From: a virus
Direction: 5' to 3' (one strand)
DNA: 64,000 bases
IMG/VR virus record: IMGVR_UViG_3300037067_026753
Shown here: positions 9,696 to 39,272 of the stretch, in pieces
How the letters are laid out: every line of letters begins with the position of its first letter
Numbering within the stretch: the first letter of the stretch is position 1
The notes under the pieces: generated by a model
What the model was told of the DNA's origin: nothing
The model's input: the letters and a program-made list of their open reading frames with translations, nothing else
The model's database searches: none
Translations under genes and position numbers: made by a program

Positions 9696-10772
9696 TTATG
9701 CATAAAACTGTAAAGCATTCAATAAGCACCCTTTTGCAACTGCATTGAGTGGATCTGATGCCTTTTTTACTTGTTTAATTGAGAATGGTAATTTTTTCGT
9801 CTTTATTTCTTGCTCAAAAAGTTTATCAAAATTAACAGCTTTAGATGTTCCACCACTAACGACAACAGATATAGATTCTGGAAAATTAGGAATATCTGTC
9901 ATAGAAGCAAATTTCTTTTCGATAGCATCACAAGTATAATTAATCAAATTTTCATAATAAATCTTTATTGCAGTCTCTTCTCTATTCTTTGAGTTCAATA
10001 AATCAACACCAGCTTCTTTAAGCATAGTAATTCTTGAACTCTTAACTCCAACAGCTTGAGCAGCATTTTGATCAATCCAATCCCCTGAACGTGCAAGACA
10101 AAATTGATATTTTTTATCAGAGACACCGTATAAAGAAAGAGCAAGATTGATTGAACCCGCACCAAATGATAAAGCTAACCCTGTAAATTGTTCTTCCTCA
10201 AGTTCTGACCACACGATAGCAAATGCTTCATTGAGTGGCTCAGCATTATATCCAAATGATTTCAAAAATGACATAAGTACATTGCCATGATAAACATTAT
10301 TGAAATCACTGTCAATAGGATCAGCAGGAATCGAGAAATAAAGCTTCTCATTTTCTTCTATAGGGTCTCCCACAAGATTCTTCAAAATAATCTTTATAAT
10401 TGACAAAGCTTCCGTTTCTCTAGAAGAAAGTACACCTTTAGAAAAGGGTCGACGTGATTCTTTGCTAAAGAAATTTGCTACATGCAAAGCTTCATCACCA
10501 AGAACATAGAGATTTCGTTTGTCAGAACTTTCAGCAAAACTGGCACCAAGTTTTGTAAGCATATTTTTTGAAATCGCATTGTTTTCTAGATCTAGAAAAG
10601 CATTTCTTTGACTCTTGAATATAATACCATTATCTGAGTAAAAAGAACTAACAGCAAAACCTGTACCACAATCTAGGCCTACACCTTTTTTTCTAGCAAT
10701 TTTTGTGTCTTCCATTATTCGTCTTTTTCTTCTTTCTGGCTCTGAACCTTCTTTTTCAAGTTGGACATCCAT
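9696..10772 (-). CDS. Actin-like ATPase of the ParM/MreB/Alp superfamily fold.
   Basis: All five actin-fold motifs appear in order: phosphate-1 GVGLDCGTGFAVSS; connect-1 LYVLGDEALHVA; phosphate-2 LALSFGAGSINLAL; adenosine ISVVVSGGTSKAV; connect-2 ASDPLNAVAKGCLLNA. Confidence 0.55.
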   Translation of the reverse strand: MDVQLEKEGSEPERRKRRIMEDTKIARKKGVGLDCGTGFAVSSFYSDNGIIFKSQRNAFLDLENNAISKNMLTKLGASFAESSDKRNLYVLGDEALHVANFFSKESRRPFSKGVLSSRETEALSIIKIILKNLVGDPIEENEKLYFSIPADPIDSDFNNVYHGNVLMSFLKSFGYNAEPLNEAFAIVWSELEEEQFTGLALSFGAGSINLALSLYGVSDKKYQFCLARSGDWIDQNAAQAVGVKSSRITMLKEAGVDLLNSKNREETAIKIYYENLINYTCDAIEKKFASMTDIPNFPESISVVVSGGTSKAVNFDKLFEQEIKTKKLPFSIKQVKKASDPLNAVAKGCLLNALQFYA

Positions 10773-10774
10773 AA

Positions 10775-10993
10775 TTAATCTCCTTTAATTTTATATTGCT
10801 GTTGTCTATTGAAATCGTCTTTTACATCCACAGGGTTGCCTCCGGACCATTGTTTGCCACGATTTTTTAGACCAGCAGGTATTTCTCCTTTATCGAAAAA
10901 ACCTTGTTCTAATAAAGCTCGTGATACATCACCTTTTTGTGATAATGAACGTGATGCAGCAAGAACATCTCTTATGATATTTTCAGTATTCAT
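10775..10993 (-). CDS. Small hypothetical protein.
   Basis: A 72-aa ORF upstream of the actin-like gene. Confidence 0.3.
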   Translation of the reverse strand: MNTENIIRDVLAASRSLSQKGDVSRALLEQGFFDKGEIPAGLKNRGKQWSGGNPVDVKDDFNRQQQYKIKGD

Positions 10994-11643
10994 TTGTTTT
11001 CTCTTTGTTGTTTAATCCGCTTCATCTTTTCAAGCGAATTTGTAAGATCATTTTTTTGAACTTCTACATTACCTGTTTTACTCATATTCGCTGTCATTCC
11101 CACTTCTTCGTCTTTGAATTCGACAAAGATATTATCTGAACTATTAATATCTATCCTTTTTTCAGATACTTGTGGTACAATTAGTTGTTCTACTTTAATA
11201 TTGTCTTTTATTTCGGCAACCATTTCCTTCGCAAGTTCTCTAGCAATATCTTTTACGATAGTGCTGTTTTTTATCATTTCTTCAGCCATTGCTTTAGCCA
11301 TATTTTTTGCAATTTCTAACACATCTGACTCTAGCACTTTTTCATTTCCTGTTTTATTATTTTGAGCTGATATAGCTCTCTTAAGCATGGCTCTATCATA
11401 CACGATCTCGACCCAATTTCGATTTATTGCATTTTGCAAATCTTTTGAACGATTAACTTCATATTCATTAAGAATTACTTCTTTACCACATTCAACGACT
11501 TTACCAATATCATTAAGTCGAACAGCAGTAAGTATTTTCCCTTTAATTATCATGATGATCTCGGGTTCCCGTTTTATAACTGGTTTCCATATATGTCTCA
11601 TTAAATGTTGCTGAAAGCTCATGAACCATCTTTTCAAACACAT
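10990..11643 (-). CDS. Hypothetical protein (217 aa, K/E-rich C-terminal half).
   Basis: ORF only. Confidence 0.3.
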   Translation of the reverse strand: MCLKRWFMSFQQHLMRHIWKPVIKREPEIIMIIKGKILTAVRLNDIGKVVECGKEVILNEYEVNRSKDLQNAINRNWVEIVYDRAMLKRAISAQNNKTGNEKVLESDVLEIAKNMAKAMAEEMIKNSTIVKDIARELAKEMVAEIKDNIKVEQLIVPQVSEKRIDINSSDNIFVEFKDEEVGMTANMSKTGNVEVQKNDLTNSLEKMKRIKQQRENK

Positions 11644-11655
11644 GTTCTAGCACTT

Positions 11656-12018
11656 TTAGATTAGTTTGCTTATCGAATCTTGAATCTTTTTCCCAGCTTG
11701 TTCTTGTGTTCTCTCCATAGCTTTCTCTATTCCTGTTGTAGAGAACTGTTGAGCTGTAATTTCTTCATTCAACAATTCTACAGGAATATTTTCAAGACCT
11801 TTGAGAACTTGCTTATTTGCAATATCTTCAGTTTTTAAATTTTCTATTTTAGGTTCTACAACAAAATTGATAGTATTATTTTTAATACTATAAGACACAT
11901 CAGCTTCTTGCCCTCGTTTCTTTAACTCTGATCTTATATTGTCTGCGCCCTTGATTGCAATAGAGCGTATTTTAAAATCAAATTTCTTTTTTAAGAGTTT
12001 TTTGCTCGGGCTTAACAT
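11656..12018 (-). CDS. Hypothetical protein (120 aa).
   Basis: ORF only. Confidence 0.3.
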   Translation of the reverse strand: MLSPSKKLLKKKFDFKIRSIAIKGADNIRSELKKRGQEADVSYSIKNNTINFVVEPKIENLKTEDIANKQVLKGLENIPVELLNEEITAQQFSTTGIEKAMERTQEQAGKKIQDSISKLI

Positions 12019-12025
12019 TTACTTC

Positions 12026-15000
12026 TTATTTTATAAATTTTTTAGAAAACTGCCTTGTTTCAAGCAATTTATTTACAATAGATAGATTAGATTTTGCTAT
12101 ATCAAAATTTGGATTAACAGATAATGCGCTCTTAAACATAAAAATAGCTTTTTGAAAACTATTTTTATTTGCAAGATCTATACCTTTGTCATTGTAAGCA
12201 ACTTCTAATAAACCCCAAGACTTTGTTTCTTCTGTATTTATTCTCAAGCATTTTTCTAAAATACTAATAGCTTCATCGTTTTTTTTGAGAACATTACAAC
12301 AATGACTAAAATCGGCCATAGTTTTTAAATCATCAGTCTTATAAACAATCTTTCTAAAAGCAAAATATGCATCTTCAATACGATTTTGTTTTGCATAGCA
12401 GATACCAAGATGTTTAACAGCATACTCTGTTTCTTTTATCTTTATAGATTCTAAAAAATATTTTTCAGCTTGTTCATAATCTTCTATGAGATTATAGGTT
12501 GTTCCCAAATGCGCAAGAACATCTTCATTCTCAGGTTCAAGTTCTAATAATCTGCGCCAAGTCACTAGAGCTTCATCGGGATTATTCAAAACTAAATATT
12601 GGGTCCCAAGTTCAAAAAGAGCTTTCGTGTCATTAAATGTTTCAGCCTTTTTCTTGCTAAGTTTTAAATATGTTTCGTTTTTTGAAGAATTAAGCTTTGA
12701 ATAATGGTGAATTGGAATAGCAGACATTTCGATATCAATTCCGAGTTCTTCAATAGATTTTTCTACCAATTCATGTATTTCACCCCTAAACTTTATATTT
12801 TTATTCGTAGGAAATAAACGAATTTTATCTGATCTACACCAACCTATGTAACCTTTTTCTTCTTGCTCATATTCTCCGGTATTTGTATTGATTCCTTCAA
12901 CATTTTTTGAATTCACATAATTTCTCGTAATGAATCCATAAGCTTTAGATGATGCTTGTAAATTTTTTCTCAATTCATCAATATCTTTCTCACTAATCAT
13001 TTCGTCAGCATCCAAAACTAATGTCCAGGGTTGTGTTGCTTTTTCAAGTGAAAAATTTCGAGCAGCTGAAAAATCATCAATCCATGCAAAATGATAAATC
13101 TTAGCTCCGTATTGTTTTGCAATTTTTATTGTGTTGTCTGTAGATCCTGTATCAACTATTATAATCTCATTTGCTACATTTTTTATAGACTCTAAACACC
13201 TTCCCAGGCAATCTTGTTCATTTTTGACAATCATACAAACAGAAAGTTGCTCTTTTCCCTGGCACAAATAGTTTGAATAGAGCCTATGTAGAACGGTCTC
13301 TAGTTTGTCAATGCTTTTATACCATAGGAATTCATTAGCAGTTTTTAAACCTTCTTCTATTAAACGAGAATAAATAGTCTCATTTAAAAAAAGCAATTTT
13401 AAAGAACTACAAATAGCCCCAGAATTTTTAGGTGGAACAATTAATGCGTTTTGACCATGTACAGCATAATCATTCACTCCTCCGCAATCTGTAGTTATGA
13501 CAGGGGTTCCACTTGCCATTGCTTCTAATGGAGGAAGACTGAACCCTTCGACTTCAAATGGTGCATTTACAACTACATCACAAGAAGCGTATACATTTGC
13601 AATTTCAATCTGCGTCATATTCGACATATTATAAAATTCGTAAGGCTCATCTTTAGAACATTTTTCAGAAGCTAAACGAACTATTGCACATTTAGAAATC
13701 TTCAAATAATTTGTTGCACCTTCTAATGCGATTTTTACTCCCTTAAACACTAAATTATAATTGCCCACAATAAGAATTCTTGGGAGTTTATTTCTTTCAT
13801 GTTTTCTCAAAGAAAAAACATACTGATCAATTCCATTAGGTATGTAATGTGATTCTGTTTCAAATTTTTTATCAATAATAGATTTCAAATATTTAGAAAT
13901 AACAATTTTCTCTTTTATCTTCAAATAATTGTTATTCACAGCATCAACTATTGTTGCGTCCAAATCTTTATCATATATCAAAGCTTCATAACCTTGACAA
14001 AAATGAATCTTTATTTTTGCTTTAATTTTTTGTAATATGTCTAATGTAGAAAAATAAGTACCAATTGCTATATCTACTTCTGGAATTTCTGTATATTCTT
14101 TAAAACAAGAAACTGATACGTCTAAATCAAACCAGGGCTTTGATGTATTAGAATAACACCAGATAGATACATCATATCCTCTTGATTTTAAACGATTTGC
14201 ATACTCAAATACGACTTTGACTCCGCCACTGGGTTGATTTGAAGCTAAAATGTATATGATGGAAAATTTATCTTTTTTCTCATTTATTTTCTGTATTCTT
14301 GAAGAATCATACCATTTTTGAAGATACAGTTTTTTGCTTTGTTCTAAAGTTTCTTCGAAAAAACCTTCTTTTTCTTGAAAAGATTTACTACCAAAATGGT
14401 AAATAAAAACGCCTTTAGAACATATTAATTTATAACCATTCTCTATGAAACGATTACAAAGATCATCATCTTCAAAATTGAAAATAAATCTATCATCAAA
14501 AAAACCTACCTGATTTAAGAGCTCTCTTTTTGTTACAAAACAAAATCCGATAAGTTTATTTGCTTCTACTACATCATCTCCAAAATTTGCATATTGTTTT
14601 TGAGAAAACAGACGAATTTCGTTATCATTTACCTCAGCTTTAAAATTATAATTTTGTCCAACTTTTTGAATTTCTGATGATGTATAATTAGTGACTGGCC
14701 CAATAATACCTGCATTATTTTCTTCAAGCAAATTTATTAATCTTAACAACCAATTTGATGTAACAACAGTATCGCTGTTCAAAAAACAGACATATTTAGA
14801 ATTTGATTTTCTAAGAGCTTGATTATTTGCATAACCGAACCCAAAATTTTTAGAATTGTATATTATTTCAATATTTTTTAAAGACATTAAATACATTTTT
14901 GTAGCATTATCGGAGCAATTATCTACTATGATAAGTCTATAATTTGCTGTATTTCTTATTATGCTTTCAACACATTTTTGCAAGTAAGGAAGAGCATTAT

Positions 15001-15847
15001 GTGTAATTAAGACAATATCACAATCATAAGTAACTTGAGCTTCATTATACTCAAGACTTAAAATTTTTGATCTTAGATAATCTAAAGCTTTTGCAGCTAT
15101 TACACCATTTTGTTGTATAAGTCTTTGTCCCCATTTTTTCAAAAGCGTAGGATACGAATATTTGACGAGAACATCTCTTTTCCCTTTATATGATTGATTC
15201 GAGCGATGATAAACATAAACATCATCAGCTATTGCAAGTTTATAACCTCTTTGTCTTATTTTCAAGACATAATCGTCTTCACTACCATAATGTGGAAAAA
15301 CTCTTGTATCTAATAAACCTATGACTTTTATAATGTTATATGAAATAAAAAAACAAAATCCATTTACGAAAGCTGTTTCTGGGTATCTTCTTTCTGATAA
15401 CGATGTCACCCAATTGCCATAAGTATCTATTTCTGTATCATTGACACAAGATTTACCTACAGATTGTGTTGTTGCACAATTTGACAAAACACCCATACAA
15501 CCAATCTGTTTATGACTTGCCCAATAAGTCGTAATCTTTTCTAACCAATTTTGTGTAACAATTTGAGTATCAGAATTTAACAAACATACATATTCGAAAT
15601 TCTTGCTTTCTAAAATCCCTTGATTACAACTCTCTGTGAATCCCTTTGAAACAGGATTTTTAATGTATTTTTGTACTATTTTGCTATCAAAAAGTAACTG
15701 ACAAAAATTAGAAGTTTCAAGATCAGAACCATCGTTAATTAAGACTATTTGAAAATCTTTGGTGTTAGACTTTTCGAGAATTGTTTTGACACATTTTTCA
15801 AGCAATTCCCACTGATTGTGTACTGGTATGATGATTGAGACAGCCAT
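12026..15847 (-). CDS. Five-module glycosyltransferase (1273 aa): GT2, GT2, GT4 (GT-B), TPR-associated GT2, then TPR repeats.
   Basis: Module 1: IIIPVHNQ...INDGSD..LLNSDTQIV. Module 2: IVLITHNALPYL..IVDNCSDNAT..FLNSDTVV. Module 3: GGVKVV...EGFSLPPLEAMASGTPVITTDCGG (the E-x7-E GT4 motif). Module 4: LSVCMIVKNE..IIIVDTGSTDNT..FAWIDDFSAARNFSLE..LDADE. The C-terminus has TPR-like helical repeats. Confidence 0.75.
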   Translation of the reverse strand: MAVSIIIPVHNQWELLEKCVKTILEKSNTKDFQIVLINDGSDLETSNFCQLLFDSKIVQKYIKNPVSKGFTESCNQGILESKNFEYVCLLNSDTQIVTQNWLEKITTYWASHKQIGCMGVLSNCATTQSVGKSCVNDTEIDTYGNWVTSLSERRYPETAFVNGFCFFISYNIIKVIGLLDTRVFPHYGSEDDYVLKIRQRGYKLAIADDVYVYHRSNQSYKGKRDVLVKYSYPTLLKKWGQRLIQQNGVIAAKALDYLRSKILSLEYNEAQVTYDCDIVLITHNALPYLQKCVESIIRNTANYRLIIVDNCSDNATKMYLMSLKNIEIIYNSKNFGFGYANNQALRKSNSKYVCFLNSDTVVTSNWLLRLINLLEENNAGIIGPVTNYTSSEIQKVGQNYNFKAEVNDNEIRLFSQKQYANFGDDVVEANKLIGFCFVTKRELLNQVGFFDDRFIFNFEDDDLCNRFIENGYKLICSKGVFIYHFGSKSFQEKEGFFEETLEQSKKLYLQKWYDSSRIQKINEKKDKFSIIYILASNQPSGGVKVVFEYANRLKSRGYDVSIWCYSNTSKPWFDLDVSVSCFKEYTEIPEVDIAIGTYFSTLDILQKIKAKIKIHFCQGYEALIYDKDLDATIVDAVNNNYLKIKEKIVISKYLKSIIDKKFETESHYIPNGIDQYVFSLRKHERNKLPRILIVGNYNLVFKGVKIALEGATNYLKISKCAIVRLASEKCSKDEPYEFYNMSNMTQIEIANVYASCDVVVNAPFEVEGFSLPPLEAMASGTPVITTDCGGVNDYAVHGQNALIVPPKNSGAICSSLKLLFLNETIYSRLIEEGLKTANEFLWYKSIDKLETVLHRLYSNYLCQGKEQLSVCMIVKNEQDCLGRCLESIKNVANEIIIVDTGSTDNTIKIAKQYGAKIYHFAWIDDFSAARNFSLEKATQPWTLVLDADEMISEKDIDELRKNLQASSKAYGFITRNYVNSKNVEGINTNTGEYEQEEKGYIGWCRSDKIRLFPTNKNIKFRGEIHELVEKSIEELGIDIEMSAIPIHHYSKLNSSKNETYLKLSKKKAETFNDTKALFELGTQYLVLNNPDEALVTWRRLLELEPENEDVLAHLGTTYNLIEDYEQAEKYFLESIKIKETEYAVKHLGICYAKQNRIEDAYFAFRKIVYKTDDLKTMADFSHCCNVLKKNDEAISILEKCLRINTEETKSWGLLEVAYNDKGIDLANKNSFQKAIFMFKSALSVNPNFDIAKSNLSIVNKLLETRQFSKKFIK

Positions 15848-15854
15848 GATGTGT

Positions 15855-16916
15855 TTAAAAAAGCCTTTCTATATTTTCAATTGTTTTTTCCCAAGTGTAA
15901 TTTGAAATCACCTCTTCTATATTTCTTTGAAACATAGTTGCAAACTCTGTATTATTTAAAAGCTCTTTAGATTTTCTTAAAATATCTTGTTTATTTTTCT
16001 TTTCAGCTATAAGACAAGTTTTTTTATCAAAAAAAACATCATCAAAAGCTCCATCACAAATGACAGAAGGGCATCCACATAATGTCGATTCTATAGGGGT
16101 TAAATTAAGACCCTCGGAAATCGATGGCATAATAAAAATAGAACACTTATTAAAAATTTCTCTTATTGTATCTTTATTTGCATCTACATATTTGGCTATA
16201 AGTTTTTCAGGATGTTTTGCGTTTTCAAACCCCGAACTTGTACCAAAAACTATTGTTCCATCAATTAAACCTTGGTTGCACAAATCATTACAGATTTCAA
16301 CACCAAGTGCATATTGTTTATCTGGAGCATAATGATACAGTAATGAAGCATATCTTTGTCTTTTAATCGCCTTATCTCTGAAAAAATAATTTTGCGAATC
16401 CGATCCAAAACCTACACAAGCACATTTTCCTCCTTCTGCTTCTATAGCTTTTTTGATTTTTAAAGTGCTTGACATGACAGTTAATTTCGGGTTGAATACA
16501 TTTTTTCTTTCTCTTTCGAAACACATACCATAACTTAGCATATAAATCAAAACTTTTTTGACTTGAGGAAGATTTGTAAGATACTCTGTGTAAGGATTGT
16601 CTGAATATGTGATCACTACATCAGATGCAGGAAATGTTTGGTCAGGTAATCCCACTGTGTATGGAAGAGGCAACACTTTCGAGTAGTCTAAATTAGGATT
16701 TAAAGTTTGAATCCTAAGTTGCACTTGATATTTTTTTTTTAATCCCCTTGACAATGCCATTGACAACTGTTTCATATGTTGAATCCCTCCACTTGTTTCC
16801 ACATATTTAGGGATTTCAACGACAAACAGATTGCTAAATTTTCTAGCTAAAGTTGTCTGCCGCATTATGCCACCGCTCTCATTATTGAACACAGGAAGTT
16901 CTACTACAATCGTCAT
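15855..16916 (-). CDS. GT-B fold glycosyltransferase (GT4-like).
   Basis: The C-terminal motif PSISEGLNLTPIESTLCGCPSVICDG resembles the GT4 E-x7-E sugar-donor binding region. Confidence 0.5.
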   Translation of the reverse strand: MTIVVELPVFNNESGGIMRQTTLARKFSNLFVVEIPKYVETSGGIQHMKQLSMALSRGLKKKYQVQLRIQTLNPNLDYSKVLPLPYTVGLPDQTFPASDVVITYSDNPYTEYLTNLPQVKKVLIYMLSYGMCFERERKNVFNPKLTVMSSTLKIKKAIEAEGGKCACVGFGSDSQNYFFRDKAIKRQRYASLLYHYAPDKQYALGVEICNDLCNQGLIDGTIVFGTSSGFENAKHPEKLIAKYVDANKDTIREIFNKCSIFIMPSISEGLNLTPIESTLCGCPSVICDGAFDDVFFDKKTCLIAEKKNKQDILRKSKELLNNTEFATMFQRNIEEVISNYTWEKTIENIERLF

Positions 16917-17476
16917 TCTTTTTTCCTACAAGTTATTGCAACATTTTCAAAATCTAAAAAATCTTTTTTTAAATTATTTTCTAAACAAGTTGCATCTATA
17001 TCCTTGTCGGTTATTTCAATCCAATTCCAGATTTTTCCTATCATGACATTTTCAAAATACTCCATATCCTTTGCATAATCATGTGCCAAAATATAATCGC
17101 CTGGTTTTAAAAATTTTGAAAAAATGCTAAATTCTTTAATTTTGTTTCCACCATCACAAAAAACAACACTTGTTCCTTCATTCTTTATCAAGTTTTGGAT
17201 TACATCAATACTCTCAAAAACATCAGCAATTCTATGATCAATATTTAAACGTACAAACAGTTTATTGTTTTCAGTTAGTTTTTTAATGTCAAATGTAACA
17301 AACTGACAATCATAAGCAATTGCATACATTTGAAACAATATAGAAAGGCCTCCATAATATGTTCCAATTTCTATGATAGTCTTTGGCTTTACAGCAAGTA
17401 AAAATTCATTTAGAACTTTTGGAATATTTTCATTCTGTGCAAGATTAAAGCCTAAAAATTCGAAACTCACATTCAT
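16913..17476 (-). CDS. Class I SAM-dependent methyltransferase (TylF/MycF/CmcI-like, Methyltransf_24-type).
   Basis: A Gly-rich SAM motif, KTIIEIGTYYGGLS, followed by VVFCDGGNK. Confidence 0.45.
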   Translation of the reverse strand: MNVSFEFLGFNLAQNENIPKVLNEFLLAVKPKTIIEIGTYYGGLSILFQMYAIAYDCQFVTFDIKKLTENNKLFVRLNIDHRIADVFESIDVIQNLIKNEGTSVVFCDGGNKIKEFSIFSKFLKPGDYILAHDYAKDMEYFENVMIGKIWNWIEITDKDIDATCLENNLKKDFLDFENVAITCRKKE

Positions 17477-17519
17477 AGCTACTCCTTGTCAAAGCAATCA
17501 AAGCAATGTTCGAATTAAA

Positions 17520-18077
17520 TTAATCTTTTCTCAAAACCCAACAATTTCCTCTAACAATATATTTTTTATTTAATTTTTCACAAAATTCATCAATCGCTTG
17601 TTTTACAGGAGGGTGTGAAAAATCATGCCCTGCCATAGTTCCACCTACACAAATCTTAGGCCACCAACAATTTAGATCTCTTCTAACGGCATCCAAACTA
17701 TGATCGGCATCAATAAAAACAAAATCTATTGTATTGTCTAAGAAATAACTTGCTCCTAAATGACTGAGTGATTTTATAACAATTAGATCTTTCCAAATTG
17801 GTTCTAGATTTTTTCGAAATAAATCTAATTGTGGATATGTAGTGATTTCATTACCATTATGAGCATTCCCTATGAAAGCATCAATGCTTATTACAGTTAG
17901 ATTTTTTTGCGAATTTATAGCTTCAACAGCTAAAAATGCTATACTTTGGCCTATCCATGAACCTACTTCTATAAGAATGCCATTTTGTCTGCTCTGTTTT
18001 ATTGCATCTTCATAAACATCTTGGAAATTAAACATAGTTTGTTGAGGAGAACAAATTGTTTCATAAAAATGTTTCAT
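17520..18077 (-). CDS. Class I SAM-dependent O-methyltransferase (TylF/MycF-like).
   Basis: The motifs ILIEVGSWIGQS and FVFIDADHS...GGTMAGHDF. It is paralogous to 47467..48051. Confidence 0.5.
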   Translation of the reverse strand: MKHFYETICSPQQTMFNFQDVYEDAIKQSRQNGILIEVGSWIGQSIAFLAVEAINSQKNLTVISIDAFIGNAHNGNEITTYPQLDLFRKNLEPIWKDLIVIKSLSHLGASYFLDNTIDFVFIDADHSLDAVRRDLNCWWPKICVGGTMAGHDFSHPPVKQAIDEFCEKLNKKYIVRGNCWVLRKD

Positions 18078-18084
18078 ACTTGTT

Positions 18085-18861
18085 TCACACCTTGTAAGTT
18101 GTTTTTATTGTTGTTGGACTACAATTAGGTCCTCGAGTGTCTTTACCAGCAAAAACATCAAATACAGAACCAATGTCTACTGCTACACCACCTTGATTTT
18201 TCCAAAACAGACCATATATTTTTCCGACAAAACCTGAGCCATATAATAACAACTTTCCCTTTAGATCTCCCAAATTTTTTATAATTTGTTGTATTTCAAG
18301 AAATCTATCAGGATAATGTTTACTTCTATATCTTTTTTCTTCAAACATCATTTCCGGAGGTACTGGAATAAATTGTACATTAGTTATATTGAATCTCTTT
18401 GAAAATTGTCGAGCTAAATCTCTACAACTTATAATGTATAAATCTTGTCTATTTAAAAGCAATTTATCATAACAAGATTCTCTTGATTCCCAATTTCTCA
18501 AAAATTCATAATGAAAATCTATCGACCCAAAATCTGTAGTTTTAATATTGCAATAAATTTTTAGAATATTTAAACTTTCGGTCCAGCAACTTCCAAGACT
18601 AAGATGATATTCTGTAGGAATTCCTAACAAATCGGCATTGTTTATAGTCTCAATTAAATTTTTTCTTATTTCTTCTATAGATTCTTTTTTTAGAATCTCA
18701 TTTAATTGTCTACTAAAAATATGTTCAACAATATTTTTTTCATTGTTCTTTAAAAGTATTGCTTCACCATCACCATATCTTAATGCTAGAAATGATCTAT
18801 TTTCATTTAAGCTAGTTATTATTTTTAAAAATACTTGATTGAAATCATTATTGATATTCAT
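18085..18861 (-). CDS. Hypothetical protein in the glycosylation cluster (possibly a GT-D/DUF1792-like transferase).
   Basis: A 258-aa ORF. The C-terminus KLLLYGSGFVGKIYG...GGVAVDIGSVFD looks Rossmann-like. The assignment is weak. Confidence 0.3.
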   Translation of the reverse strand: MNINNDFNQVFLKIITSLNENRSFLALRYGDGEAILLKNNEKNIVEHIFSRQLNEILKKESIEEIRKNLIETINNADLLGIPTEYHLSLGSCWTESLNILKIYCNIKTTDFGSIDFHYEFLRNWESRESCYDKLLLNRQDLYIISCRDLARQFSKRFNITNVQFIPVPPEMMFEEKRYRSKHYPDRFLEIQQIIKNLGDLKGKLLLYGSGFVGKIYGLFWKNQGGVAVDIGSVFDVFAGKDTRGPNCSPTTIKTTYKV

Positions 18862-19516
18862 ATCTCGACAATTCTTGAAAATTCTGACAATTTACATTAA
18901 TAAGACAATATGTTTCTCTATATACATCTTTAAATTGAATTAATTCTTTTGCTCCCAATTTTTCACTATAAACAATAGTATCTACAGGTGAACAAATCGG
19001 AACTATTTCATTAGAACTTGAATCATTTATTTTATATAAGCTCCCTATCTTTGCTTCAAATTTTAATTCTTCAGTAATTTTTTTTAACATTTCCGTTGTT
19101 ACATTTGTAGGATGTCCTATCCAATCTGTCCATGTCAACTTAAACCCTAAAGAAGCAAGGTATTTAATTTTATCGAAACATGGGACTTTAATAAAGATGA
19201 ATTCTGTAGCAGCTTTAACAGATTTTTCTAATACGTTTTTAACTTGTGCTTCATTTTTTAAATGTTCAAGAAAATGAAGCATTGTTATAAATCTACATTT
19301 AGGAATTTCACAACTTACATCAGTAATATCAGCAAAAACTACATTATAACCTTTTTCTCTTGCTCTTTCAAGTTCGCTTTTCCTATTGTCAATACCTAAA
19401 AATGTTTCTCCACCAAATCTAGATTTTGCCCATCCTATAGACCCACCCACACCACAACCCAAATCGACACAATCTAGCATTATATTTCCTTTAGCAAAAA
19501 TTAAACAAATTTTCAA
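18848..19516 (-). CDS. Class I SAM-dependent methyltransferase.
   Basis: Motif I, LDCVDLGCGVGGSIGWA, then a GIDNRKSELERAREKGYNVVFADITD post-I region. Confidence 0.55.
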   Translation of the reverse strand: MKICLIFAKGNIMLDCVDLGCGVGGSIGWAKSRFGGETFLGIDNRKSELERAREKGYNVVFADITDVSCEIPKCRFITMLHFLEHLKNEAQVKNVLEKSVKAATEFIFIKVPCFDKIKYLASLGFKLTWTDWIGHPTNVTTEMLKKITEELKFEAKIGSLYKINDSSSNEIVPICSPVDTIVYSEKLGAKELIQFKDVYRETYCLINVNCQNFQELSRYEYQ

Positions 19517-19836
19517 ATATTATGATGTAGCTGTTTTGACATATCTGGTAAAGAAATATTGTACATTGGGCGTCTAGAATACAAATCATCCATCTCAAAA
19601 ACATACAAATCTCTTGCTCTATTTCTAGCATGCAAATGTCTCATAGGTCTGAAATCTTCATAAATCCTGTTTTCAACAGGTTGTCCCTCGCTTTTATCAG
19701 AACCTCTAGGTACAATACTATCTACTTTTTGCTGAATTCGAACGGCATCGGGAGAATCTTTCGACAATTCAACAAATTCTTTACGAAGAGGACCACGTCT
19801 ATAAGTAGCTGTTGGAGCAATTACTAAATTATCCAT
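19513..19836 (-). CDS. Hypothetical protein.
   Basis: A 107-aa ORF. Confidence 0.3.
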   Translation of the reverse strand: MDNLVIAPTATYRRGPLRKEFVELSKDSPDAVRIQQKVDSIVPRGSDKSEGQPVENRIYEDFRPMRHLHARNRARDLYVFEMDDLYSRRPMYNISLPDMSKQLHHNI

Positions 19837-19877
19837 AAATTCCTTTAGTCAATTTGGGGACTTGCTCCCTCAAATAA

Positions 19878-20465
19878 TTAAGCCCAAATTCTTGTAAAAG
19901 GTCGATCAAATAAATGTATTCTTCCTTTTGAATCTTTTCTCGGATTATCTTTATAATAAACATCTTGAAAAGTTCCTGATGTCTGCTTGTAAAGATAATG
20001 AATGAATTTCGCATAAGTATGAGCATTTGCATACCTGCTTGCAGGGTCTCTTATAGTTCTCAACATGGGTCTTACTGTAGACTTAAATGTTGCTTCTGGA
20101 TTTACTGCCTTAGGGTCAAACCAAGCACCCAAATTCATTCCTTGATCAACAAGGTATTTGTCAGCTTCTAATTGAGGTTTCTCCACATCAGCCAAAAGAT
20201 TCCTTTTCCTTGTACGCCATAAATTCAACATGTCATTGTTGAGAGTTAAAGTCATAGGAATTGTGGTTTCATTAATAGTATAGCCGCCTCTAACCGTAGG
20301 GTATTCTCTTTGAAAATTATTGAAAGTATCTTGTTCAGAAACAAATTGTGGAAGCGGCACTCCAGGATACTTTCTTGTAACATCAAACTGATCTCTTTCG
20401 ACATTAGAAAATCTTTGACTTTTTCTTGCTGGATCAGCTATTACAATACCATGTAAAGTTGCCAT
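19878..20465 (-). CDS. Hypothetical protein (195 aa).
   Basis: ORF only. Confidence 0.35.
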   Translation of the reverse strand: MATLHGIVIADPARKSQRFSNVERDQFDVTRKYPGVPLPQFVSEQDTFNNFQREYPTVRGGYTINETTIPMTLTLNNDMLNLWRTRKRNLLADVEKPQLEADKYLVDQGMNLGAWFDPKAVNPEATFKSTVRPMLRTIRDPASRYANAHTYAKFIHYLYKQTSGTFQDVYYKDNPRKDSKGRIHLFDRPFTRIWA

Positions 20466-20526
20466 AATGATATTCCTTTCATTTCAATTTCGAAATTATA
20501 AACATATAACAAAAAATGTCACAACA

Positions 20527-23268
20527 TCAATAATTTATGTTCTCGAAAACTATACTTCTACCTTTTACTATATGATCTACATTTGAATTTTCATGCGAAA
20601 CAAAATCCTCACTTGTATGCAACTCTTCTCTTTCTTTAGGGCTATCTACTGTCGCAACATTCGGGCCACCATGCAGAACATGCTTACTGCTCTTGTCGAT
20701 CCCAGGTTGCATGATCTGATTAGGTAATATCACTTTAAATTTATGCCTTACATCAGTTCCATCAAGAACTTCAACAACAAAATGTTGTTGTGCTCTTACT
20801 CCACCAGGACCTTCTACTGGAGTTATCGGCCCTATCAAACATCTATCACCATTTCTTCGAATTATCATGTCTCTTTGATTGACTATAGGACTTGGTCCTG
20901 TCCATGTTTCGATCTGATATGCTAATTTTAAGCCCCTATCAGTTTGTTGCACTCTTTGTTCTGTTGTCAAGGGACCTATAAGTATTGGGAATGGTCCATC
21001 AAATCCACCAACGAAACCCGAACCAAAACAAATTTCGCAATCTTGATCCGGTTGTTTATGAGTTCTTTCTTTAACATCTCTATAAGTACAAGCACATTTT
21101 ACCCCTGCTTTTTTCTTTAAATAAAGCAAAACACGTTCTCCACCCTGTTCAAGCATCCATGCGTTTCTACGCACACACTCTTCTAAAATATACGTCATCT
21201 TGTCAGGCTGCAAAACCATTGGCGTTAATAAATCTAAATCAGTCTCGTCCTCGCTCGTTACGCACGTTACCTTATAAAAATAGTTCTTCCTTAACCGTAT
21301 ATCAATTGTGTTAGAAGGTACTCTATATGACACGAGCACTATTGAATATTCATTTGGTACAGGTGGCTCGAACCATTGTTTTTTTACTTCATCATATTGT
21401 CTTTTTGTTTCAAGTTCTATCACGCCTTCTAAACCTTGAAGTAAACGTACATAAGCTTGCCGTCCATCAATTGTTACGTTTACGAACTCTGATTTATCCG
21501 TAGGTGTATTTTTACCTGAATCATCTATCACAGGTCGTTGGGACAAATAGATCAAATATTCTTTTTTAGGGTTCAAAGGTTGTATAATAATTGGATTTCC
21601 AGAAACCACAACAAATTCTGAAAATCTAAACTCAATTTGCTTGTCACCTGAGACACCACAAAGTTCTATGTGTAATTCATCAGAATATCTATCAAACACA
21701 CCAAGTTGTATAAAATTCTGAGTCAAATGGTCAAAGAAATATGTTGTAATTATCTCTCCAACTCTTATGATTCTAAATTCTCCTGTTACATCACTAGAAG
21801 GAATTGTAGTTGGTATCTCTTGATTACCATTAACGTATTGAACAGAACTATATACTTCAGATAATCTCGACATTGCTCTAGAAATTTCGACACTATTCTG
21901 TTCGTCTTTTCGAACAATGAATTTGCAAGCTTGTATTCCAATATCGGGTGCAATCCAAGTAGAAAAATCAAACTTTATCTTTATTTCAAAATTTCCTCTA
22001 AGTTTATATTTTGACACAAGTCTTGATGTCTGTTTCAAACCCACACTATCTTTGAAAATCACACCATCATACTGAAACAACATTTCGGCAGGATCTATTT
22101 CATCCCATTTTGCAGCATCAAATATTTCAGTAGAACTAAAATCATCATTCACATCATTACTAATGCTTACAGTTCTTCTAAACTGTTCACTCACATCTTC
22201 ATTTACAATCCGACTATCAAGATTTTTGTCAAGATATTGAGTAATTGCTATAGTGCTAGAATTAAGTTTTTGAAACGGGCCTATTTCTGAATCAGCTCTA
22301 TAGATGTTATATCCAATTACTTGATTATAAACCGGATACATATCGTCCCAACGAATATGTAGTTCACTTTGATTGAAAGGGCAGGACACAAAAACATTTG
22401 TAGGAATATAATTGTTTTTAGCTATTTCAACATTATAGATTTCGGTATGAGTTGTCTCGACATTACCGATTTCATCAATAGCAAAAAATTTTATTGTTGT
22501 TCTTCTATTATCTCTTACTCTTATTGGTGTTGCATAAACCAATGATGCTGTTGTCGGCTCAGTACCATTAATTGTATAGTAGATAATCGCTTTTGGATCG
22601 TCTACAGAAAGTACTATTTCTTGAGAAGTAAAAAATGAACCACCAGAAGGTGCAGCACTTGAAATTGGAGCAATCGAATCTATCTCGTAATTTTCTATTA
22701 TTATTTCGGAATATGAATTGGAAACAAATGCAATTGCTTTTAATGTTGTTGTTCCTTGATTTGTTATAGAGAGTGGAGCGACATAAGTATCGGAATATAA
22801 TGTAGGTGTTGAGCCATCTAAAGTAAAAAAAACTACAGCTGTCACATCTGTCGTAAGTGTTACAGATATAGCAGAATTAAAAAGACGTCCATGAGGAGCA
22901 GCTGTAACTATAGGTGGCTGAATACTTGGATCTGGTATTGTTAAAAACTCGTAATCACTTTCACCTGTTGCTCCATGTAGATCATTAATTTCAACATGAA
23001 CAGAAACAATCTGACTATAATTAAAGTGAGCGATCTGATAAATATTTATGCTGACTGAATTCGGTACAGAATTTTCGTTTATTATTGTACCTTCAAAACC
23101 CGTTTGAAACACGCCATTTACTATTGCAGGAACCGTAGCAATAGAAACATTCAATGTTGCAACATCAACACCATGTATATCTTGTGCTCTTAAAAATATT
23201 GGGACATCTAATTTTGCTCCAATATAACCTTGAGCTGGGCTAAAATCTAAAAAAGTTGGATTAGACAT
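20527..23268 (-). CDS. Large multidomain virion surface protein (913 aa) with repeated chitobiase-C-like Ig domains, an FN3-like domain and a C-terminal Cys cluster.
   Basis: Two or three repeats of the form ..FFTLDGSTPT..Y..P(L/I)..T...TTLKAIAF../..YYTINGTEPT..TTIKFFAI.. fit the CHB_HEX_C-like fold. A later segment ..YNIYRADSEIGPF.. is FN3-like. The C-terminus carries CACTYRDV..CEICFGSG. Confidence 0.45.
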   Translation of the reverse strand: MSNPTFLDFSPAQGYIGAKLDVPIFLRAQDIHGVDVATLNVSIATVPAIVNGVFQTGFEGTIINENSVPNSVSINIYQIAHFNYSQIVSVHVEINDLHGATGESDYEFLTIPDPSIQPPIVTAAPHGRLFNSAISVTLTTDVTAVVFFTLDGSTPTLYSDTYVAPLSITNQGTTTLKAIAFVSNSYSEIIIENYEIDSIAPISSAAPSGGSFFTSQEIVLSVDDPKAIIYYTINGTEPTTASLVYATPIRVRDNRRTTIKFFAIDEIGNVETTHTEIYNVEIAKNNYIPTNVFVSCPFNQSELHIRWDDMYPVYNQVIGYNIYRADSEIGPFQKLNSSTIAITQYLDKNLDSRIVNEDVSEQFRRTVSISNDVNDDFSSTEIFDAAKWDEIDPAEMLFQYDGVIFKDSVGLKQTSRLVSKYKLRGNFEIKIKFDFSTWIAPDIGIQACKFIVRKDEQNSVEISRAMSRLSEVYSSVQYVNGNQEIPTTIPSSDVTGEFRIIRVGEIITTYFFDHLTQNFIQLGVFDRYSDELHIELCGVSGDKQIEFRFSEFVVVSGNPIIIQPLNPKKEYLIYLSQRPVIDDSGKNTPTDKSEFVNVTIDGRQAYVRLLQGLEGVIELETKRQYDEVKKQWFEPPVPNEYSIVLVSYRVPSNTIDIRLRKNYFYKVTCVTSEDETDLDLLTPMVLQPDKMTYILEECVRRNAWMLEQGGERVLLYLKKKAGVKCACTYRDVKERTHKQPDQDCEICFGSGFVGGFDGPFPILIGPLTTEQRVQQTDRGLKLAYQIETWTGPSPIVNQRDMIIRRNGDRCLIGPITPVEGPGGVRAQQHFVVEVLDGTDVRHKFKVILPNQIMQPGIDKSSKHVLHGGPNVATVDSPKEREELHTSEDFVSHENSNVDHIVKGRSIVFENINY

Positions 23269-32897: not shown

Positions 32898-33054
32898 ATT
32901 AGCTCCTTAAATCTTTTTACATCATTTTCAAAATCAAAGTTGTCTGCATCTAAGACATAAACTTGCAGTGAATAAAAACTATAGAAAACCATTTTTCTCT
33001 TGTTTTTATACGGTCAAACTTACTAGATTTCATCGACTAAAATTAGGAGTAAAA
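32898..33054. promoter_or_regulatory. Divergent intergenic region between the leftward operon (32897 and below) and the rightward collagen/RCC1/GT block (33055 onward). It should contain promoters for both.
   Basis: Gene orientation switches here. The region is AT-rich and the GGAG RBS of the plus-strand gene lies at 33044..33047. Confidence 0.4.
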
Positions 33055-35313
33055 ATGGCTTATAAAGAACGAGCTTTAACTTCTGAATTAAAAAGTGATG
33101 TAAGTAGTTTAGCAAGTTACTTATTGAGTTCTGCCGATACCGTAAGAGTTACTTCAAATTTAACTGTTACAGAGAACTTAATAATACCTGCATCCTGTTC
33201 TTTTATGTTTTTTAATGGTGCAAAACTTGTACATAGTTCTTACACAATTACTTTTACCGGGTCCATTATAGGAGATCCAACATGGAAGATATTTGACGGT
33301 ACTGGTACTGTCACCTTCAATGTTGGCTCTGTCCCTCATGTAAGACCGGAATGGTGGGGCGTAACACAAGGTGTTGATTGTACTGCGTCTGTTCAAAAAG
33401 CAATAGATTCTGTTTCAAGTGGTGGTATTGTTCTTTTATCAGCTGCTAGTTATGTAATTAATGGCCCTCTGACAAATAATACAGGTGCAATAATTCTAAA
33501 TTATAGTTCAGTAAATCTTTTCAATCTTTTACCTGCAAGTTCATTTAGTAGAGAAATGCAATTTGGCGGCTCTTTTGTAGCGGGTACAGGTTCGTTCATA
33601 GAAAGTGCCTCTATTCCTCGATTATCAAATTTTACTTCTAATGGAGTACTTAAAACAACTGGCGCAAATGGAACTTTAACGGTAGATACAGTTGGAGTTT
33701 TTGGACCTACTGGCATTCAAGGTGAAACAGGAATTCAGGGCATCCAGGGTGAAACAGGATTACCAGGCCTTGGTGGCACAGGTTTACAAGGTCCTCAAGG
33801 TGATACTGGAATTCAAGGAATACAGGGAGCCACAGGAATAGGAGCCGAAATATCTGGTCATAGTAGTTTAACTGATATGCCTGATTTAACAGGTGTTGTA
33901 GCTGATCATGATACAAGACTTGTAACAAAAGTTCAAGACATAACTCCCACAGTGCCTGCACCTTTTGCAGGTATGCTATGGTATGACACTTTAGCAACAG
34001 GAAGTGAACAAGGTTATACTGGGCCACAAGGTCTTACTGGAATTCAAGGTATCCAAGGTGAAACAGGGTTGCCAGGTATTGGTGGTACAGGTTTACAAGG
34101 TCCTCAAGGTGATACAGGTATTCAAGGCTTGCAAGGTGAAACTGGGCCTGCCGGTTTAGGAACAACAGGTATTCAAGGTGAAACTGGGCCTGCTGGTTTA
34201 GGAACAACGGGGATCCAAGGTGAAACTGGGCCTGCTGGTTTAGGAACAACGGGGATCCAAGGTGAAACTGGGCCTGCTGGTTTAGGAACAACAGGGATTC
34301 AAGGTGAAACTGGATTACAAGGAAGCACGGGATTACAAGGTTTAGGTGAGACTGGATTACAAGGCATTCAAGGAAACACAGGAATACAAGGAAATACAGG
34401 TGCACAAGGTTTAGGTGAGACTGGGTTACAAGGTGTTCAAGGAAATACCGGCATTCAAGGAAACACAGGAATACAAGGAAACACAGGTTCACAAGGTTTG
34501 GGTGAAACAGGATTACAAGGCATTCAAGGTGAAACTGGAATACAAGGAAATACAGGTGCACAAGGTTTGGGTGAGACTGGATTACAAGGTGTTCAAGGAA
34601 ATACCGGGATACAAGGTGAAACTGGAATACAAGGAGACACAGGTTCACAAGGTCTAGGTGAGACTGGACTACAAGGTGTTCAAGGTGAGACTGGATTACA
34701 AGGAAATCAGGGCGAAACTGGAATTCAAGGCAATACTGGATTGCAGGGCGCGACTGGACTCCAGGGATTAATTGGAATTCAAGGTGATACAGGTCTTGGA
34801 ATACAAGGTGAGACTGGTGCAGGAATTCAGGGTGAGACTGGCCTTCAAGGAATTCAAGGCGATACAGGCCTTGGAATTCAAGGTGATACTGGTGCAGGAA
34901 TACAAGGTGAGACTGGGCTTCAAGGAATTCAAGGTGATACAGGTCTTGGAATACAAGGCACAACTGGTGCAGGGATTCAAGGTGAGACTGGGCTTCAAGG
35001 AATTCAAGGTGATACAGGCCTTGGAATTCAAGGTGATACTGGCGCAGGGATTCAAGGTGAAACTGGCCTTCAAGGAGCTCAAGGCGAGACTGGAATTCAA
35101 GGTGAAACAGGCTTAGGTCTTCAGGGTGAAACTGGCCTTCAAGGTTCTCAAGGTCAAACTGGGCCAGAAGGTGGACCTCAGGGAACTACAGGTCTACAGG
35201 GACCACAAGGATTAACAGGTATACAGGGTGCTGCTAACATTTTGTCTGGTACTGATGATCCACCTGATCCATCAGGATATCCTGATGATACTTTATATTT
35301 TCAATATGTTTAA
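33055..35313 (+). CDS. Collagen-like fiber protein with an N-terminal pectate-lyase/beta-helix-like segment (cassette 2a).
   Basis: The start ATG at 33055 has a GGAG RBS. The N-terminal ..VRPEWWGVTQGVDCTASVQKAIDSVSSGGIVLLSAASYVINGPL resembles the Pectate_lyase_3 N-terminus. About 500 aa of Gly-X-Y triplets ([13 protein letters not shown]...) follow, with a C-terminal ..PSGYPDDTLYFQYV. Confidence 0.7.
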   Translation: MAYKERALTSELKSDVSSLASYLLSSADTVRVTSNLTVTENLIIPASCSFMFFNGAKLVHSSYTITFTGSIIGDPTWKIFDGTGTVTFNVGSVPHVRPEWWGVTQGVDCTASVQKAIDSVSSGGIVLLSAASYVINGPLTNNTGAIILNYSSVNLFNLLPASSFSREMQFGGSFVAGTGSFIESASIPRLSNFTSNGVLKTTGANGTLTVDTVGVFGPTGIQGETGIQGIQGETGLPGLGGTGLQGPQGDTGIQGIQGATGIGAEISGHSSLTDMPDLTGVVADHDTRLVTKVQDITPTVPAPFAGMLWYDTLATGSEQGYTGPQGLTGIQGIQGETGLPGIGGTGLQGPQGDTGIQGLQGETGPAGLGTTGIQGETGPAGLGTTGIQGETGPAGLGTTGIQGETGPAGLGTTGIQGETGLQGSTGLQGLGETGLQGIQGNTGIQGNTGAQGLGETGLQGVQGNTGIQGNTGIQGNTGSQGLGETGLQGIQGETGIQGNTGAQGLGETGLQGVQGNTGIQGETGIQGDTGSQGLGETGLQGVQGETGLQGNQGETGIQGNTGLQGATGLQGLIGIQGDTGLGIQGETGAGIQGETGLQGIQGDTGLGIQGDTGAGIQGETGLQGIQGDTGLGIQGTTGAGIQGETGLQGIQGDTGLGIQGDTGAGIQGETGLQGAQGETGIQGETGLGLQGETGLQGSQGQTGPEGGPQGTTGLQGPQGLTGIQGAANILSGTDDPPDPSGYPDDTLYFQYV
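33700..35200. repeat. Degenerate 9/18-bp tandem repeats encoding the Gly-X-Y collagen-like region of 33055..35313.
   Basis: Repeating ggtgaaactggattacaa-type units. They create long spurious antisense ORFs, for example 34034..34963 and 34768..35100. Confidence 0.7.
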
Positions 35314-35321
35314 GGACTATT

Positions 35322-36533: not shown

Positions 36534-36600
36534 AAAAGATAGCATCTGGACATGCAACTCTATAATGTTTTGATGATCAGTGTCTAAATTTGGAGGATAA

Positions 36601-39252: not shown

Positions 39253-39272
39253 GAAATACGAGGCAAGAGTAA

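Follow-up and report, generated by a model that had tools for sequence, protein, structure and literature searches.

A conserved multi-domain glycosyltransferase and an exchangeable cassette in the structural operon of a very large phage: a candidate locus for virion glycosylation

What a tailed phage makes with a cluster of glycosyltransferases and methyltransferases lying among its structural genes, and onto which molecule the product would be built, are the questions raised by a locus in the IMG/VR virus record IMGVR_UViG_3300037067_026753. The DNA analyzed here (hereafter the window) is a stretch of 64,000 nucleotides; these 64 kb belong to a genome of ca. 424 kb, of which the remaining ca. 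360 kb (85%) lie outside. The locus, island 1, occupies positions 12026 to 19516 on the minus strand and encodes a 1273-amino-acid (aa) multi-domain glycosyltransferase (GT), two further GTs and three methyltransferases. An original prediction had proposed that these enzymes glycosylate virion proteins, and all six of the minus-strand open reading frames (ORFs) on which it was founded are present with exactly the boundaries it gave them. The proposal is supported in part, by the likeness of the enzymes to protein-directed transferases, their apparent solubility, the tight packing of their genes with structural genes and the conserved position of the locus in related phages. On this evidence we hold, with moderate confidence, that island 1 forms the variable portion of a cytoplasmic pathway of protein O-glycosylation, encoded by the phage and acting on virion proteins.

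Island 1 is anchored by the 1273-aa enzyme (12026..15847; hereafter the mega-enzyme), of which the public protein P0001 is an exact match. Residues 277–1273 form a GT2-GT4-GT2/TPR core common, at 50–73% identity, to ca. 20 proteins, whose lengths range from 983 to 1832 aa because their N-terminal extensions differ, being absent or consisting of GT2, GT4+GT4 or GT2/CHGN/GT7C domains. Five related loci (L001, L002, L007, L008 and L009) were viewed over ±10 kb around each match, and in all five the core was found at the same place in the structural operon. There, a gene for a protein of ca. 900 aa with CHB_HEX and Fn3_assoc domains is followed by genes for proteins of ca. 195 and ca. 107 aa, by a cassette and by the core enzyme; genes for proteins of ca. 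120, ca. 210 and ca. 70 aa and a Volactin-family gene come next and, further along, those of the tail fibre and sheath. The content of the cassette varies from locus to locus. In L001 it encodes a GT4, a methyltransferase fusion, a DegT fragment, an ATP-grasp protein, a radical SAM/SPASM protein, a methyltransferase, a GT11 and a DUF268 protein; in L008, NeuB, a CMP-transferase, two GT7C-type GTs and several methyltransferases and GT4s; in L007, a radical SAM protein and a methyltransferase; and in L009, a Gly_transf_sug protein, a GT2/GT-D fusion, a GT4 and a GT2-TPR protein. A conserved anchor enzyme accompanied by a swappable cassette, at a fixed site of the structural operon, is the main new result of this analysis, and the exchange of a cassette at a conserved site is what diversifying selection on a surface-exposed glycan would be expected to produce.

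Two of these cassettes contain enzymes of particular note. L008 carries NeuB together with the CMP-sugar transferase (4769-6659), for nonulosonic-acid synthesis, and L001 carries the DegT fragment, ATP-grasp and radical SAM/SPASM genes (3495-6400). Synthesis of rare or modified sugars may thus be within the reach of some relatives.

The mega-enzyme was divided into four catalytic modules and a C-terminal TPR domain. Module 1 (residues 1–225; 15173..15847) is a GT2 of GT-A fold matching Pfam Glyco_tranf_2_3 at residues 3–219, with motifs LNSDT and SEDD located by eye in the translation; it is the variable N-terminal extension, relatives aligning from residue 277 on only and having this module absent or replaced. 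Module 2 (277–515; 14303..15019), also a GT2, opens the conserved core and matches Glycos_transf_2 at residues 278–445, the whole Pfam GT2 extent running from 278 to ca. 490. Module 3 (ca. 525–860; 13268..14275) is a GT4 of GT-B fold matching Glycos_transf_1 and Glyco_trans_1_4, the GT4 match at residues 689–834 covering the C-terminal half of the domain. Module 4 (868 to ca. 1060; 12668..13246) is a GT2 of GmaR/SunS type, with a Glyco_tranf_2_4 type match, and the TPR domain (ca. 1070–1260; 12068..12640) matches TPR_1, TPR_2 and TPR_12 at residues 1075–1260. Over the entire protein, Glycos_transf_2 matched in three stretches with E 7e-68 (228.3 bits versus a cutoff of 23.3), Glycos_transf_1 with 8e-17 (61.7 versus 26.4 bits) and TPR_1 with 3e-19, values well outside what chance would give. 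The architecture first proposed, GT2-GT2-GT4-(TPR-GT2)-TPR, was right as to the types of module but not in placing a TPR before the last GT2; since Pfam shows none there, four catalytic modules and one TPR module are counted.

Retention of catalytic motifs was assessed in an alignment of 20 mega-enzyme homologues (50–73% identity), invariance being counted where a homologue covers the position. Motifs NSD359T and FE459DDD of module 2 and VD899TGS and D946AD948 of module 4 are invariant, as is the E767-x7-E775 pair of module 3 (20/20 homologues), and many residues of the TPR domain are likewise invariant. Loss of the DxD or E-x7-E residues had been named in the original prediction as a finding that would speak against it; the motifs being intact and invariant, that objection fails. 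Judged from their sequences, the enzymes of island 1 are intact, with their catalytic motifs retained.

Comparison with solved structures pointed to protein-modifying enzymes for one end of the mega-enzyme. The closest relatives of module 4 in a phmmer search of PDB sequences are GmaR (22ao, E 2.3e-25) and SunS (7msp, 1e-13). Module 2 has weaker similarity to 3bcv, a GT2 (3.2e-8), and to 5hea, a putative GT named GalT1 (9.3e-7). An AlphaFold model covering module 4 and the TPR domain (pLDDT 88.7), in which the TPR part is an all-helical repeat, retrieved SunS and ThuS first in Foldseek (E 7e-17, across both domains), followed by the TPR domains of OGT and SPINDLY, with TarP and TarS lower. By sequence and by model, the last GT2 plus TPR unit thus appears most like GmaR and SunS/ThuS. 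Module 4 is proposed to be the protein-initiating transferase, and the TPR domain is presumed to act as the substrate-recognition module. Against the NCBIfam SunS equivalog TIGR04195, which has a cutoff of 350, module 4 plus TPR scored 81.8 bits and a 515-aa protein of a second island, described below, 52.2 bits; matches of this kind to characterised enzymes are read, at the level of sequence families, as resemblances and not as memberships.

The two other GTs of island 1 are cassette genes. The 353-aa protein (15855..16916), announced as a GT-B glycosyltransferase, indeed matches Pfam Glycos_transf_1 (E 5.6e-11, 42.7 bits versus a cutoff of 26.4), carries E268-x7-E276 and is assigned to GT4. 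Homologues were found in L001 (62% identity) and L009 (67%); L002 gave no match, and L007 and L008 gave alignments of ca. 100 residues at 27–29% identity located inside their mega-GT genes. The 258-aa protein (18085..18861) had been considered a possible GT-D, which the present results strengthen. The top three Foldseek matches of its AlphaFold model (pLDDT 95) are the DUF1792 GT-D structures 4pfx, 4phr and 5v4a (E 4e-7 to 7e-6, probability 1.0), with a moderate superposition (TM 0.55–0.58). Thirty-seven homologues were collected, most with a precomputed PF22882 match, and residues R28, G30, D31 and E33 of a RYGDGE motif are invariant in the 38 sequences of the family. The protein itself scores below curated cutoffs (PF22882, 24.9 bits versus 27; NF040628, 16 versus 75) and, alone or as a profile, it retrieved nothing meaningful from PDB sequences, the family being resolved by the fold search alone. 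The model makes a GT-D (DUF1792) fold well supported for this protein. Residues D31-G-E33 within RYGDGE are a candidate for the metal-binding DxE of DUF1792. GT-D enzymes reportedly use a DxE motif (Zhang et al. 2014). The passage on DxE in PMC6291802 concerns GtfC enzymes, and the same source assigns the DUF1792 GT-D class to the third step of serine-rich-repeat (SRR) adhesin O-glycosylation.

Three class I S-adenosylmethionine (SAM) methyltransferases had been predicted and three were recognised; assignment of two of them to the TylF/MycF type was not borne out. The Pfam TylF model gave no match at E≤0.01 for the 187-aa or the 185-aa protein, and the sole trace of that superfamily was NovP, at E 0.059, for the 185-aa protein. 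The 187-aa protein (16913..17476) is instead of the CmcI/rhamnosyl-O-methyltransferase type, with a match to RMNT_CmcI (PF04989, 30.2 bits versus a cutoff of 23.2), a PDB match to CmcI at E 0.0065 and SAM motif I IEIGTYYG. The 185-aa protein (17520..18077) is of the Methyltransf_24 type (PF13578, E 1.2e-13, 52.3 versus 26.3 bits), scores 20.5 with PF04989, under cutoff, and contains motifs IEVGSWIG and FIDADHS. The score against the NCBIfam rhamnosyl-methyltransferase equivalog was 16.7, relative to a cutoff of 400. Both are cassette genes, and neither has a homologue in the five related loci. The third enzyme (18848..19516; Pfam Methyltransf_25 and Methyltransf_11, SAM motif I VDLGCGVG) has a maximal ORF of 222 aa starting at TTG. 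Its true start is probably the ATG at Met13, which yields 210 aa (18848-19480), because AAAGGA precedes this ATG and public gene calls give 210 aa.

The solubility of the system was examined in 18 proteins in and beside island 1 and the second island. In Kyte-Doolittle profiles with a 19-residue window, none of the 18 exceeded the threshold of 1.64 for a membrane segment. Among the window proteins scanned with Pfam, no flippase, polymerase, priming transferase, transporter or lipid-carrier gene was recognised, nor any enzyme of sugar-nucleotide synthesis. A plausible course of events is as follows. Head and tail proteins and the soluble enzymes would be produced together from a single, tightly packed operon, presumably late in infection. 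The TPR domain of the mega-enzyme core would hold the acceptor protein, and the GmaR/SunS-like GT2 would, by analogy, put the first sugar on Ser or Thr. The other modules of the mega-enzyme, the separate GT4 and the GT-D would then extend the chain sugar by sugar, using sugar nucleotides from host pools, a source assumed because no recognisable sugar-nucleotide synthesis enzyme is encoded in the window. The CmcI-type and Methyltransf_24-type enzymes would O-methylate sugar hydroxyls, probably as caps, and the accessory-gene swaps seen between related phages would change the outer glycan. A more far-reaching claim, offered tentatively, is that a clade of phages of ca. 400–500 kb keeps a 'glycan serotype' locus, in which a conserved, TPR-guided enzyme with three transferase modules would place a core O-glycan on fibres (collagen-like stalks, RCC1-like tips or both) and a rapidly exchanged cassette, with transferases, methyltransferases and enzymes for rare sugars, would diversify the outer sugars. 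Such a locus would be a phage counterpart of bacterial O-antigen and flagellin-glycosylation islands and of giant-virus fibril glycosylation.

The setting of island 1 was as anticipated. The window is the structural region of a tailed phage, with a tail sheath (177-2894), a tail fibre (3639-7718), three collagen-like fibre genes and a major head protein of HK97 type (60950-61828; phrog_2522 at 2e-67, plus Pfam Phage_capsid). Its upstream flank (19513..23268, minus strand) encodes the 913-aa CHB_HEX_C/Fn3_assoc protein and the 195-aa and 107-aa proteins, identified by Pfam and by homologues in L001, L002, L007 and L009, with gaps into island 1 of -4 to +61 nt. The downstream flank (9696..12018, minus strand) encodes proteins of 120, 217 and 72 aa and a 358-aa actin-fold protein, recognised by synteny in all five related loci. 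From the 913-aa gene through island 1 to the 217-aa gene, intergenic gaps range from -14 to +61 nt, and the island lies between a surface-type protein and genes leading to the tail fibre and sheath. Packing with structural genes and conservation of position in related phages agree with the proposal that the island stands among tail and fibre genes. Counts of promoter- and terminator-like sites in the region were not above shuffled expectation, and therefore the operon structure is deduced from gene spacing alone. The best sigma-70-like match of the region (20495-20522, minus strand; GTGACA-16-TATAAT, 11/12) lies ahead of the 195-aa gene that leads into island 1, within an upstream gap of 61 nt. 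The two 2-kb windows of lowest G+C in the region fall inside island 1 (28–30%; adjacent windows, 33–36%).

Two of the flanking proteins deserve mention. The 913-aa protein (20527-23268, minus strand) contains two CHB_HEX_C_1 and two Fn3_assoc domains and has conserved counterparts in L002 and L007, the former with a gene for a 992-aa PKD-domain protein inserted beside it. Probably exposed at the surface of the virion, the 913-aa protein is a further candidate acceptor. The 358-aa protein (9696-10772, minus strand) matches Pfam Volactin (PF25216) over its full length with E 2.9e-74 and, weakly, MamK (1.2e-8). Volactin is an archaeal actin-fold family. With 56–90% identity in the five related loci, the Volactin-family gene is the most conserved of the region and is always found a few genes downstream of the mega-GT, placing an actin-like protein within a phage structural operon.

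Collagen-like fibres had been designated as the likeliest substrates. On the plus strand (32968..40508), genes for two of them (781 and 883 aa) each precede that of an RCC1-like propeller protein (403 and 411 aa), and on the minus strand (50596..55406) the gene of a third (1187 aa) likewise precedes that of an RCC1-like protein (411 aa), as assigned with PHROG. In the collagen-like proteins GXQ triplets alternate with GXT triplets. Threonine fills position Y in 33–40% of triplets (33%, 37% and 40%, corresponding to 43, 98 and 111 Thr, ca. 250 in all); the first two fibres account for the values of 33–37% and the 1187-aa fibre for the highest. They share the C-terminal motif GT..PP...G.P....Y.QY[VI], directly before the RCC1-like gene. 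The RCC1-like gene starts ca. 10–20 nt after each collagen-like gene, in the window and also in L021 (1-7984), and this pairing points to a fibre made of two pieces, the collagen forming the stalk and the propeller the tip.

Island 2 is located between these collagen/RCC1 gene pairs. Its 515-aa protein (40755..42302, plus strand), the gene of which starts 247 nt past an RCC1-like gene, is a fusion of a GmaR-like GT2, a TPR domain and a class I methyltransferase, with PDB matches to GmaR (2.5e-24), ThuS (7msk, 4e-12) and SunS (7msp, 3e-10); a viral-contig scan with this protein gave no pattern match. It is followed on the plus strand (44564..48051) by genes for a GT2 (402 aa), an HNH endonuclease, a GT4 (388 aa) and a Methyltransf_24 protein (194 aa) and, on the minus strand (48041..49675), by that of a 544-aa GT8-GT9 fusion, so assigned by Pfam. 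The total for the window comes to ten or eleven GT and five methyltransferase domains. A search of PDB sequences with the GT8-GT9 fusion gave no match. The fusion is a highly conserved gene of huge phages, with at least 725 homologues on contigs of up to 496 kb; for more than 120 the identity over full length is 47–75%. In some homologues (within P0160-P0278; 898–912 aa) LAGLIDADG_3 (PF14528) is inserted, pointing to an intein or homing endonuclease, and others have a fused Methyltransf_24. In each of six contexts inspected (the window, L010, L011, L021, L022 and L023), the GT8-GT9 gene lies directly beside an RCC1-like gene; a small methyltransferase gene precedes it in three, and a Baseplate_J gene is nearby in one.

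Island 1 lacks any specific link to collagen or to the RCC1-like proteins, and the comparative signal ties GT8-GT9 to RCC1-like genes. The proposed role of the collagen-like fibres, with threonines in GXT triplets as in BclA, is accordingly retained as no more than plausible. The most likely acceptors would be the fibres, as collagen-like stalks, RCC1-like tips or both; they are the best candidates because the stalks are acceptor-like in their chemistry and the tips are encoded adjacent to GT8-GT9.

Several points weigh against the reading of island 1 as a pathway acting on virion proteins. Ser/Thr-rich C-terminal tails of the mycobacteriophage kind were not found on other structural proteins, no 30-residue stretch reaching 45% Ser+Thr in 45 window proteins and the capsid protein peaking at 17%. 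Every NCBIfam match to characterised enzymes is far under the equivalog cut-off, and PHROGs places all these GTs under 'moron/host takeover'. Collagen-like genes are present in only two of the six GT8-GT9 contexts and absent from four, for which reason collagen was rejected as a general conserved partner of the GTs. The other adverse points bear on the main rival, remodelling of the host envelope, in which lipopolysaccharide (LPS) core or O-antigen, teichoic acid or capsule of the infected cell would be modified so as to block superinfection, avoid re-adsorption of progeny to debris or alter the cell surface. The GT8 and GT9 families are classically associated with the LPS core, module 1 has a match to a GtrB-like PHROG, and the teichoic-acid transferases TarP and TarS are among the fold matches of module 4 plus TPR. 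A combination of multi-domain GTs and terminal methyltransferases is also typical of O-polysaccharide synthesis dependent on ABC transporters and of the synthesis of S-layer glycans, the variability of the cassette is like that of O-antigen loci, and transporters, lipid-carrier enzymes or sugar-nucleotide pathways could lie in the 85% of the genome beyond the 64 kb read. The rival is nonetheless judged unlikely. All 18 proteins lack membrane segments, none of the scanned window proteins was recognised as a transporter, flippase or priming enzyme, and the TPR-bearing modules best match protein or peptide glycosyltransferases. The genes share the orientation of the late structural operon in which they are embedded, their position is conserved in the five related loci, and GT8-GT9 is tied to RCC1-like fibre genes in all six contexts.

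Proteins other than those of the virion, such as host flagellin, pilin or adhesins or the phage actin-fold protein, might be modified in the course of host takeover or exclusion. GmaR glycosylates flagellin, a conserved TPR domain implies a conserved partner, and the most conserved neighbour of the mega-enzyme is the Volactin-family protein. Against this, no specific signal points towards any such target, the hypervariable cassette suits an exposed structure better than an intracellular one, and two separate islands stand among fibre genes, which makes this possibility quite improbable. More improbable still is the assembly of a lipid-linked or free oligo- or polysaccharide, later moved en bloc to protein or released, as an S-layer, O-antigen or glycocin-like product. 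Several GT modules on one polypeptide together with methyltransferases do resemble polymerising, chain-terminating systems, and the SunS family acts on small peptides; but the window proteins scanned included no recognisable oligosaccharyltransferase, exporter or priming enzyme, and no cysteine-rich, glycocin-like precursor ORF was noticed beside the SunS-like modules, where no systematic search was made. Tailed-phage virions are, moreover, generally taken to assemble in the cytoplasm, where no periplasmic transfer would reach them. A hypermodification of phage DNA by glycosylation or methylation, serving against restriction, has a probability close to negligible. DNA is the classical target of phage GTs, as reviewed in PMC9614988 and PMC12619734, and one PHROG calls the 185-aa enzyme a 'DNA methyltransferase'. 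Among the window proteins scanned, however, nothing was recognised as a hydroxymethylase, as a kinase or as the product of another gene of nucleotide metabolism, and the location is the structural module. TPR domains, GT-D and CmcI-type enzymes and ten or eleven GT domains are not known from DNA glucosylation systems. A defence or 'conflict system' reading was also considered, and dropped because PADLOC defence models gave nothing relevant; Pfam GT4-conflict matches were below cutoff.

The provenance of the sequence also had to be clarified. Protein P0001 sits on a contig of 424 kb and also on JAQUND010000005.1, of NCBI assembly GCA_028717785.1, labelled 'MAG: Candidatus Nanoarchaeia archaeon'; the related protein P0007 bears the same Nanoarchaeia label. 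Since an HK97-type capsid protein, a sheath and fibres are encoded, this contig of the metagenome-assembled genome (MAG) is phage sequence, probably from a huge phage mis-binned as a DPANN archaeon. The closest relatives of its sheath belong to phages of 309 kb and 485 kb. Megablast of the island against 50,697 phage records gave no match, tblastn gave partial matches only, all below 35% identity, and a tRNA scan found none. Homing-endonuclease-type ORFs at 43965-44570 (plus strand), 45712-46350 (plus) and 59392-60441 (minus) break up glycosylation and structural genes; in Pfam they match HNH_3, HNH_3+AP2 and, for the last, NUMOD3 plus a TnsA-like domain. The PHROG label 'head closure' for 59392-60441 was without Pfam support, and a NUMOD3/TnsA-like endonuclease is preferred.

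If island 1 indeed serves to glycosylate virion proteins, very large environmental phages spend ten or eleven GT and five methyltransferase domains on decorating their particles. Related phages would differ in the glycan made, so that the glycans of virions would be a surface trait that varies among phages and bears on host range, on stability of fibres built of collagen without hydroxyproline, on protease resistance and on recognition by grazers or immune systems. The core of the locus would be a compact, soluble, TPR-guided multi-enzyme of use in protein glyco-engineering. A public MAG labelled as a DPANN archaeon holds, at least in this contig, a huge phage.

Experimental proof of a phage glycosylating its own particles comes, to our knowledge, only from mycobacteriophages, with small enzyme sets. 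Che8, Corndog and Myrna are the phages in which, reportedly (Freeman et al. 2023), phage-encoded GTs glycosylate their own virion proteins. Glycosylation of mycobacteriophage capsid and tail-tube proteins is among the work cited in PMC12619734. In those phages the glycans are on C-terminal tails of capsid and tail-tube subunits, the Ser/Thr-rich kind of tail not found in the window, and one to four single-domain GTs suffice; here there are instead ten or eleven GT domains and five methyltransferase domains, a TPR-bearing core enzyme and a hypervariable cassette, in a clade of phages of ca. 400 kb. Collagen-like acceptors have a bacterial precedent in BclA of the Bacillus anthracis exosporium, the GPT repeats of which are said to be O-glycosylated with a short oligosaccharide ending in 2-O-methylated anthrose. 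The tetrasaccharide and its 2-O-methyl group are covered in PMC6222408. The likeness lies in a collagen-like fibre with threonine-bearing triplets, which are GXQ/GXT in the phage and not GPT; collagen is not a conserved neighbour of the phage GTs.

Other viruses offer analogous enzymes. In chlorovirus PBCV-1, A064R combines two GT domains with a sugar O-methyltransferase and builds the capsid-protein glycan; a second methyl group is contributed by a separate methyltransferase. Viral collagen-like proteins are the substrates of L230 in Mimivirus (PMC9614988). The resemblance to the phage is one of description, a virus encoding its own multi-domain enzyme. A064R/A061L and L230 belong to eukaryotic viruses and produce N-linked or hydroxylysine-linked glycans, whereas the phage has more GT domains and, in addition, a TPR recognition module.

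Among cellular systems, GmaR, the flagellin O-GlcNAc transferase of Listeria, and SunS/ThuS, the S-glycosyltransferases of glycocins, are the best matches of module 4 and of the 515-aa protein. GlcNAc is the sugar that GmaR transfers to flagellin, a substrate proposed to be recognised by the TPR domain of the enzyme (PMC9638930). All of them have an N-terminal GT-A (GT2) domain with DxD followed by a helical, TPR-type domain that presumably binds the acceptor, and are soluble and cytoplasmic; unlike them, the unit found here is the end of a polypeptide with four catalytic domains or is fused to a methyltransferase. In the SRR adhesin clusters of Gram-positive bacteria (Fap1/PsrP/SRRP), soluble GTs build an O-glycan stepwise, in the cytoplasm, on a Ser/Thr-rich repeat protein. 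These clusters also use GT2 (GalT1-like) and GT8 enzymes. The GT4 and DUF1792 (GT-D) classes are documented in them, with glycan and GT content differing by strain (PMC6291802). Unlike SRR clusters, the window has no recognised SecA2/Y2 export system or GtfA/B pair; its candidate acceptor is a collagen-like GXT repeat or propeller protein of the virion, and methyltransferases and a fused mega-enzyme are added. Every domain of the phage system comes from a known family, its organisation and the phage clade that carries it being what is unusual. On the comparisons made here, the system would work most like SRR adhesin or flagellin glycosylation and like the multi-domain GT/methyltransferase enzymes that chloroviruses and Mimivirus encode.

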